The notes below the pieces were generated by a model. That model worked only from the letters and a program-made list of their open reading frames with translations. It had not been told where the DNA came from and searched no databases. From positions 64,001-128,000 of IMG/VR virus record IMGVR_UViG_3300037424_000485: a stretch of 64,000 nt of DNA; one strand, given 5' to 3'. The translations under genes were made by a program, and so were the position numbers. The DNA comes from a virus (Duplodnaviria > Caudoviricetes). Below, piece by piece: positions 57,545 to 58,163 of this stretch (positions are counted from its first letter, which is position 1; the number at the start of each line of letters is the position of its first letter).

Positions 57545-57603
57545 AATGTTTTATCTCATTGATGATATTTAATAACTCTTCATTAGGATTATTTAACAGC
57601 TTG

Positions 57604-57924
57604 TTAAACACCGTATTTAGCCTTGAGCTTTTCCAACTGACAAAGCTCTTGATTCTCAATAAATTTTCGGTGGTTATCTTCGTTATTCAGCCGTGCGGCT
57701 TCCTCGGCATCGGTTTCCAACCGCTTATAGCTTATTTTCACCTCAAACTGACTGCCATCGTAATAGGTTGACGTACTGCAATCTATATTTATGGTCGCCT
57801 TGTACTCATCAGGCACAAGGGCAAATTTATCAGACCACCATTTCAAAAACTCTTCCGGGCTACTCGGCAGGTCATAGGCACAAGACTCGGCTTCAAAAAC
57901 AATAACTTTAATTTCCTTTTTCAT
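57604..57924 (-). CDS. cassette-borne hypothetical protein
   Basis: 106 aa, GGAGG RBS, GC content above background. Confidence 0.75.
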   Translation of the reverse strand: MKKEIKVIVFEAESCAYDLPSSPEEFLKWWSDKFALVPDEYKATINIDCSTSTYYDGSQFEVKISYKRLETDAEEAARLNNEDNHRKFIENQELCQLEKLKAKYGV

Positions 57925-57973
57925 AACTTCCTCCGTACATATGTGTTTATCCAGACATCAACTGAGCTTGGTG
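57604..57973 (+). mobile_element. 370-bp integron-type gene cassette with eroded attC (site F)
   Basis: Insert flanked by GTTA at both ends within the pol duplicate; starts G|TTAAAC (GTTRRRY) and ends CTGAGC-TTGGT-G|TT. Confidence 0.7.
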
Positions 57974-58163
57974 TTAGCATATCTCTGACCATTAAGAATG
58001 GTATGTCTACACATGATGTTATAGCCTCTGCCATAATACCATAAAATTTTCTAATAATCAATAACTTTATATAAATAATATTATATAAAAACAAACCCAC
58101 TAACCGTTGGTAGCGGATAATGGGTTCTAATCATAACATTTACTTATAAGGAAGTAAACAAAT

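Follow-up and report, generated by a model that had tools for sequence, protein, structure and literature searches.

The locus lies in a 204,431 bp IMG/VR virus record of about 32% GC and an estimated completeness of 85%, of which bases 64001-128000 make up the locus sequence shown; this whole stretch of 64,000 nucleotides is called the window, and coordinates are given on it. The phage is a jumbo phage of the virulent (lytic) type. Its family B polymerase is distantly T4-like, with less than 30% identity to known T4-like phage polymerases, and is split, between motifs B and C, over two genes separated by 5 kb (53047-60752). The live N-part gene (58896..60752, minus strand) encodes 618 aa from the exonuclease domain to motif B and stops about 50 residues past this motif, and the C-part gene (53047..53871, minus strand) encodes the second half of the split polymerase. 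The 5-kb gap between them contains accessory genes (NUDIX, DUF3307, DUF6915 and HNH) and cassettes, and a gene for an RtcB-type RNA ligase (61294-62400, Pfam E 4e-89) adjoins the polymerase gene. No close relative of the PolB N part was found in IMG/VR, which left no related phage in which to look at the site before the duplication or the interruption.

The insertion in a dead polymerase duplicate

An HNH endonuclease gene (58164..58895, plus strand) is oriented head-on to the live N-part gene and sits between the live polymerase end and a dead one. The family of this gene has at least 18 paralogues across the 204-kb record (44-60% identity), the copy at 58164-58895 and those at 17 other places, and its conserved 3' part also matches many other contigs from sediment samples. 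The final 170 bases or so of the N-part gene are present twice, the dead copy spanning 57550-58043. The left part of the duplicate (57550..57603, minus strand) is identical to 58912-58965 save for one early mismatch and runs into the start of a 124-aa gene (57170-57544). The right part (57974..58043, minus strand) matches 58966-59076 and is dead because it carries two substitutions and two deletions, one of 1 nt and one of 36 nt, the latter between tgccat repeats. In a self-BLAST of the genome, 57550-57606 corresponded to 58912-58968 (98% of 57 positions) and 57972-58056 to 58964-59049 (87%).

Between the two parts lies the inserted cassette (57604..57973, plus strand in the attC-top orientation), the composition of which is foreign (41.9% GC, against 28.4% GC in the flanks). 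The intact gene reads tatttaacagcttG|TTagcatatctctgacc with the G at 58965, the empty site being the G|TT at 58965|58966, and the duplicate reads tatttaacagcttG|TTAAACACC...370 bp...CTTGGTG|TTagcatatctctgacc. At the left junction GTTA (57603..57606, plus strand) the crossover falls at G|TT between 57603 and 57604, and at the right junction GTTA (57973..57976, plus strand) the cassette contributes the G and the polymerase target the TTA. The insertion was conservative, with no target bases lost and none added, and the empty and filled sites are 1.4 kb apart in the same genome. A sequence-only reading of this DNA had reported an empty and a filled site in one genome with insertion at G|TT, and direct reading of both copies confirmed it; the length of 370 bp that it gave agrees with our limits of 57604-57973, and the perfect GTTRRRY with which it had the insert begin is the GTTAAAC at 57603-57609, a box that includes the reverse complement of the TAA stop of the cassette gene. 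The structure observed, an insert in a dead duplicate with G|TT at both junctions, is confirmed.

In the source sample an 864-nt Logan contig spans 57577-58440 with no differences, and in a second sediment sample, from another study, a 732-nt Logan contig spans 57891-58622, again with none. Since Logan contigs of two samples cross the junctions without differences, the structure of the insert is real and not an assembly artefact. The depth of the source-sample contig at 57577-58440, which covers the insert and the HNH start, was 19.2, compared to 26.8 and 26.5 in the flanking contigs; the drop may hint at genomes without this arrangement, though contig depths cannot show it.

The cassette gene and its product

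The insert carries one gene (57604..57924, minus strand), which is intact, encodes 106 aa, is preceded by a GGAGGA ribosome site at 57929-57934 and has as its stop codon the TTA of the left G|TTA. The gene is under purifying selection, with dN/dS of 0.12-0.19 in comparison with the two closest relatives, L008 and L006. The AlphaFold2 model of the 106-aa protein had a pLDDT of 90. Structural searches with it returned nothing below E 0.1 from the PDB and only uncharacterised proteins from the AlphaFold clusters; Pfam gave no family match and PHROGs one weak match, to a family with no assigned function. A search of 50,697 phage records with the insert region, at both the DNA and the protein level, gave no match. 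No relatives of the protein family were found in 185,579 reference prokaryote genomes, so that these point to no host or bacterial integron as the source, and a search of Rfam over 53800-59000 revealed nothing relevant. A transposon, IS element or MITE was considered and rejected: the right-hand copy of the repeat lies 22 nt inside the end, the gene has no transposase-like match, and the borders of the homologues are of the att type.

The spacer between the duplicate and the HNH gene (58044..58163) contains on the minus strand a terminator-like hairpin (58118-58095) followed by a sigma70-like site (58061-58033; TTGATT-17-TATTAT with an upstream TG). This site, a consensus match only, has its -10 hexamer inside the adjoining duplicate and could possibly drive the cassette gene. 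The terminator-like hairpin and the promoter-like site at 58118-58033, just upstream of the cassette gene, make up a PeSL-like composite, likewise by consensus only.

Contexts and borders of the homologues

Fourteen relatives of the cassette protein were found in metagenomes, with 41-84% identity. The closest relatives of the window cassette are on contigs L006 and L007 (86% nucleotide identity) and L008-L011 (78%). These contigs are phage-like, with neighbours including a DNA ligase, a methyltransferase and a radical-SAM PHROG; on the contigs that carry attC-like sites the neighbours are a radical SAM PHROG, DNA ligase, methyltransferase, HNH and T4_Y16D. On L006/L007 and L008-L011 the genes lie between GC-rich imperfect palindromes bounded by RYYYAAC and GTTRRRY boxes. 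The sequence-only reading had named homologues with borders unrelated to GTT, or with transposon ends, as evidence that would count against it; the closest homologues, L006, L007 and L008-L011, are instead bounded by G|TT in attC-like arrays and have no transposon ends.

In the attC-top orientation the left border of the window cassette reads ...cagcttG|TTAAACACCGTATTTAGCC, and similarity to the homologues starts there; the corresponding borders are ...CAAACG|TTAAACACC in L006, ...GGCCG|TTAAACACC in L007 and ...ACGGCG|TTAAACACC in L008. These are four unrelated left flanks after which similarity begins at the same G|TT base. L006 and L007 share a 435-nt block, 100% identical, which consists of the gene and an upstream hairpin site of about 95 nt ending ...AAAGCG|TTAGCG, and one end of this block is at GTTTAAC|G. 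The hairpin folds with a z of about -2 alone and of about -4 as a circle junction. The same block of gene and hairpin is shared by L006 and L008 at 81% identity, and the hairpins downstream of it are unrelated.

If a cassette circularises at G|TT, its start and its R'' box are expected to be complementary and to covary. The R'' box, with attC-top as the orientation, is the one immediately upstream of the ribosome site of the gene. In L006-L008 the two are complementary at 10/10 positions (GTTAAACACC/GGTGTTTAAC), and the pair covaries, being GTTACACGCC/GGCGTGTAGC in L004/L005 and TGTTATGCG/CGCATAACA in L016, a homologue with 35% protein identity. Shuffled sequences reached this pairing run in 0-8 of 500 trials, and the copies from plain phage operons showed no such complementarity. 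In the window, GTGTTTATC (57943-57951) pairs at 8/9 positions with the cassette start GTTAAACAC (57603-57611); this complementarity, already noticed from the sequence alone, was thus reproduced, and it is in the homologues that it becomes perfect and covarying.

Many relatives are found in ordinary phage early/recombination operons beside YopX, RecT, YqaJ, HNH and SbcC-like genes, with no special borders. A 425-nt block with a homologue of the cassette gene is 99.8% identical between L004 (2567-2991) and L005 (3908-4332), two otherwise unrelated T4-like contexts with T4_Y16D in one and an RNA ligase and DEAD helicase in the other, and such a block shows recent movement. Since its borders are not G|TT, the cassette gene moves by other routes too. 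L008 (2272-2885) differs from the otherwise identical L010 by the presence of one ROS/MucR-family gene cassette; one end of the difference is at the AAC of an R'' box, and the other lies within two look-alike AAC hairpin starts and is not placeable to the base.

The attC remnant of the window

The R''-derived box GTGTTTATC (57943..57951, plus strand) corresponds to GGTGTTTAAC in the homologues, the conserved AAC being ATC here (GTTTATC compared to GTTTAAC). It is followed by the attC remnant (57952..57972, plus strand), which consists of the 5-nt spacer CAGAC, ATCAA, the L'-like CTGAGC and the 5-nt spacer TTGGT, and the right border of the insert lies one spacer length past the L'-like arm. 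The whole site, GTTTATC-CAGAC-ATCAA-CTGAGC-TTGGT-G, measures 35 nt from R'' to R' and has no L'' arm, in comparison with 60 nt in the aadA1 control described below and 86-95 nt beside the homologues. It folded no better than shuffled sequences, either as the region (z +0.5) or as the circle junction (z -1.8). The site can be read as R''-spacer-(deletion)-L'-spacer-G, with a presumed deletion, and would formerly have functioned as an attC. Of the attC-like right arm proposed earlier, the L'-like CTGAGC and the TTGGT spacer hold up, but neither an L'' arm nor a stable hairpin accompanies them. Folding of the circular junction, suggested in the same place as a check, gave a comparably divided outcome: the window junction did not stand out from its shuffles, in contrast to the L006/L007 site.

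Polarity of the hairpin sites

The aadA1 cassette with its 60-nt attC, from plasmid R100 (Tn21/R100), was used as a control. On the sense strand of the gene this attC is composed of R'' GTCTAAC, a 5-nt spacer, a 5' arm with two extra bases, a 3' arm, a 6-nt spacer and R' G|TTAGAT. In the attC-top orientation the hairpins of the homologues agree with the control in the R''/R' boxes, the 5- and 6-nt spacers and the arm that carries the bulge; the imperfect-palindrome architecture of attC is present beside the homologues and in the control and absent in the window remnant. In the metagenome hairpins, however, the extra bases sit on the arm that is 3' on the sense strand of the gene, and the genes are therefore antisense to the attC top strand. 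The conserved blocks, the bulge side and the spacer asymmetry agree that the site is antisense to the gene and lies upstream of it. This polarity was found wherever it was readable: by arm alignment in one of the two L008 sites, in L006, in window site B and at 18595-18689, and by eye in L016 and L022. A scan for attC sites by regular expression and minimum-energy folding made many false calls inside genes and missed window sites A and B, and was used as a pointer only.

In the polymerase gap, a GC-rich block (54220-55010, 41-57% GC) has two attC-like sites and two genes on the minus strand, which encode 73 aa and 76 aa (the 76-aa product being a zinc ribbon). Site B (54913-55004), about 2.6 kb from the cassette in the same gap, has canonical polarity on the plus strand (GCCCAAC-AAGTC-GCTC[C]AC...GTGAGC-TAAAAC-G) and is antisense to the zinc-ribbon gene; its R'' is GCCCAAC, its spacers measure 5 and 6 nt and its 5' arm has three bulged bases, but R' has GGT in place of GTT. 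Site A (about 54593-54655) is weaker, and the minimum-energy folds of the two sites were unimpressive (z 0.2 and -2.3). No homologues of the 76-aa gene were found and those of the 73-aa gene are without att-type borders; these two genes add no support to the cassette reading. Elsewhere in the window, at 18595-18689, there is a 95-nt GC-rich imperfect palindrome, TTATAAC...GTTATAA (z -4), with its bulged bases on the 3' arm of the plus strand, which gives an attC-like polarity antisense to the flanking plus-strand genes.

A gene antisense to the attC polarity is not ordinary integron cassette design, a point absent from the sequence-only reading. The reversed orientation in every readable related array points to a cassette design that may be specific to phages, of which no published description was found. 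Measured against an integron cassette, the window insert has the G|TT borders and lacks the folded palindrome and a gene on the attC top strand.

The target site and the search for a recombinase

The GTT of the target CAGCTTG|TTAGCAT fits the published GWT consensus. The target also reads ATTTAAC-AGCTT-GTTAGCA, that is, two inverted R-type boxes; about 4 independent motifs of the form RYYYAAC-N3-7-GTTRR, which was defined after seeing the site, occur in 204 kb, compared to 15,816 GWT sites.

No tyrosine recombinase (PF00589, even at E <= 1) was detected in the 204-kb record, which is about 85% complete, in agreement with the earlier remark that no IntI is seen here, and no integron platform, that is, intI with attI nearby, was found. 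In five viral records that carry homologues no tyrosine recombinase of the integron type was found; one tyrosine recombinase, in the record of L003, was rejected as an ordinary phage integrase far below the integron-integrase cut-off. Integron integrases are able to insert cassettes at GWT secondary (attG) sites of bacterial genomes, and the inserted attC hairpins are expected to be lost by replication slippage (Loot et al., bioRxiv 10.1101/2022.09.11.507474). Virulent phages carry integrase-less attC clusters (CALINs), and phage sites are substrates of IntI1 (Qi et al. 2023, PMC9892861).

Origin of the insert

We favour, with moderate confidence, the explanation that the insert is a single-gene cassette of the integron type, joined by an integrase-type route at a GWT secondary site; the phage probably gained the gene via an integron-like recombinase. 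Segment 57604-57973 is best explained as a 'reversed' cassette, with the gene antisense to attC and the stop codon inside the starting G|TTA. The product is that of one crossover between a circle ...CTTGGTG|TTAAACACC... and the target ...CAGCTTG|TTAGCAT.... The process would have begun with a cassette circle whose attC R' box was G|TTAAAC. One conservative G|TT crossover with CAGCTTG|TTAGCAT, in the redundant 3' end of the N part, would account for the footprint seen, and the insertion cost nothing because the target was a redundant copy left beside the HNH gene. The enzyme would have been a tyrosine recombinase of the integron type, supplied in trans from the host or a co-resident element and acting on attC and an attG-like site. 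Comparison with the homologues suggests that the attC hairpin was then mostly lost and the AAC of R'' changed to ATC, which would have frozen the cassette in place. The gene stayed intact, is under purifying selection, points in the same direction as the neighbouring phage genes, and may be expressed by read-through or from the promoter-like site at 58061-58033.

The sequence-only reading had already proposed integrase-mediated capture, and the G|TT borders of the homologues, the covariation and the GWT target make this the best explanation. Its wording of 'direct evidence', on the other hand, is too strong for a non-folding 35-nt remnant with a mutated R'' in a record without an integrase, and for a gene with non-G|TT borders in L004/L005.

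Illegitimate recombination is an alternative that we consider unlikely. According to it, the DNA of the host or of a co-infecting phage supplied a fragment of a cassette array, which was joined to the dead polymerase fragment through microhomology of GTTA, extending to GTTAGC at most, perhaps as a break left by an HNH enzyme was being repaired. An illegitimate (microhomology) route has been proposed for phage attC clusters by Qi et al. (PMC9892861), and several features of the window would fit it: both junctions carry the same 4 nt, the donor-type junction in L006/L007 is GTTAGCG where the target has GTTAGCA, the genome contains 18 HNH paralogues, one of which the insert adjoins, and the record has neither a functional attC nor an integrase. 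The L004/L005 copy, moreover, has moved with borders other than G|TT. Joining by microhomology is, however, rarely perfectly conservative with the same core at both ends. The cassettes of three other contexts have their border at exactly the base of the left border here, and the right border comes one spacer length after the L'-like arm, the product being as a circle crossover predicts.

It is rather improbable, in our view, that reversed hairpin cassettes are moved by some other recombinase, borne by phage or host and not a classical IntI, in a related but separate system. The antisense position of the attC-like sites wherever polarity is readable, the phage-like nature of the contigs that carry them, and searches for IntI that found none in the 204-kb record or in the five viral records with homologues would all suit such a system. 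Yet the sites retain IntI-binding features (AAC/GTT boxes, 5/6-nt spacers and bulges on one arm), attC sites from phages have been shown to be IntI1 substrates (PMC9892861), and a candidate enzyme is not visible in the 204-kb record.

It is very improbable that the cassette first entered a live polymerase end, in an ancestor or relative, and that a later arrival of the HNH gene together with a fresh 3' end displaced the disrupted one, an explanation that alters the order of events and not the joining mechanism. The layout at 57550-59076, of live end, HNH gene and displaced old end, resembles that of an element bringing a replacement 3' end; the old end would continue into the start of the 124-aa gene (57544), and the left part of the duplicate is nearly identical to the live copy, from which the right part departs at 3 positions and by the 36-nt deletion. 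Against this, no relatives were found that could order the events, and the loss of 28 residues from the polymerase N part might be lethal. An assembly chimera, conceivable in a metagenome assembly with a 57-nt repeat in the region, is effectively refuted by the Logan contigs from two samples of different studies and has a negligible chance of being correct.

It is already published that phages carry integron sites and that integron integrases insert at simple GWT sites in bacterial genomes. To our knowledge, no natural case has been available of a phage genome from which the joining event itself can be read. The novelty of this locus lies in an insertion outside any array, in a jumbo phage of the virulent type that has kept the empty site alongside; the crossover can be placed to the base, and the later decay of the site is also visible. 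If the integrase route is true, lytic phages without any integrase pick up single genes by integron-type recombination, and some orphan genes in phage plastic regions would be recognisable as former cassettes by their G|TT borders.

More tentatively, and with some doubt on our part, virulent T4-like and jumbo phages of sediments could share a pool of phage-adapted 'reversed' cassettes, spread by integrase-type crossovers at ordinary GTT sequences with an enzyme borrowed in trans and followed by loss of the hairpin. The cassettes of such a pool would have the hairpin site ahead of the gene and the stop codon within the G|TT box. Many of the orphan genes of plastic regions would in that case be fossil cassettes, and the split-polymerase gap a landing zone.

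Comparison with known systems

PeSL cassettes of T4-type phages are small accessory genes shuffled in plastic regions with a hairpin element upstream (Arbiol et al. 2010, PMC2839356; Comeau et al. 2014, PMC4122927), a description that the window insert resembles. PeSLs consist of a terminator stem-loop with a sigma70-type promoter behind it and depend on homology for recombination (PMC2839356; PMC4122927), whereas the borders of the window insert are G|TT boxes and the insert holds no stem-loop and no good promoter. A PeSL was rejected as an explanation, as the insert contains no hairpin and a weak terminator and promoter pair occurs only outside it, at 58118-58033.

The classical cassette aadA1 has a start, G|TTAAAC, identical to that of the window cassette. 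The two differ in that the window gene is on the strand opposite to attC, with the site before the gene and not behind it, and in that the window site measures 35 nt.

The attG insertions described by Loot et al. are like the window insertion in several respects: the G|TT crossover takes place in ordinary dsDNA outside an att site and is conservative, the cassette start TTAAAC follows the G of the target, and the TT of the target follows the G of the cassette. The later loss of the hairpin expected by those authors agrees with the window. Their target was a bacterial chromosome, in contrast to a virulent-type jumbo phage, and their hot-spot motif CRGM at +6 to +9 is absent in the window, which has ATAT; in addition, the window attC is a remnant, the gene is antisense to attC, and the record is without an integrase.

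The CALINs of virulent phages, like the window, are integron-type sites and cassettes without an integron integrase. The window differs from them in having a single off-array cassette of reversed design with the empty site kept in the same genome, and because this empty site is preserved the joining event can be read.
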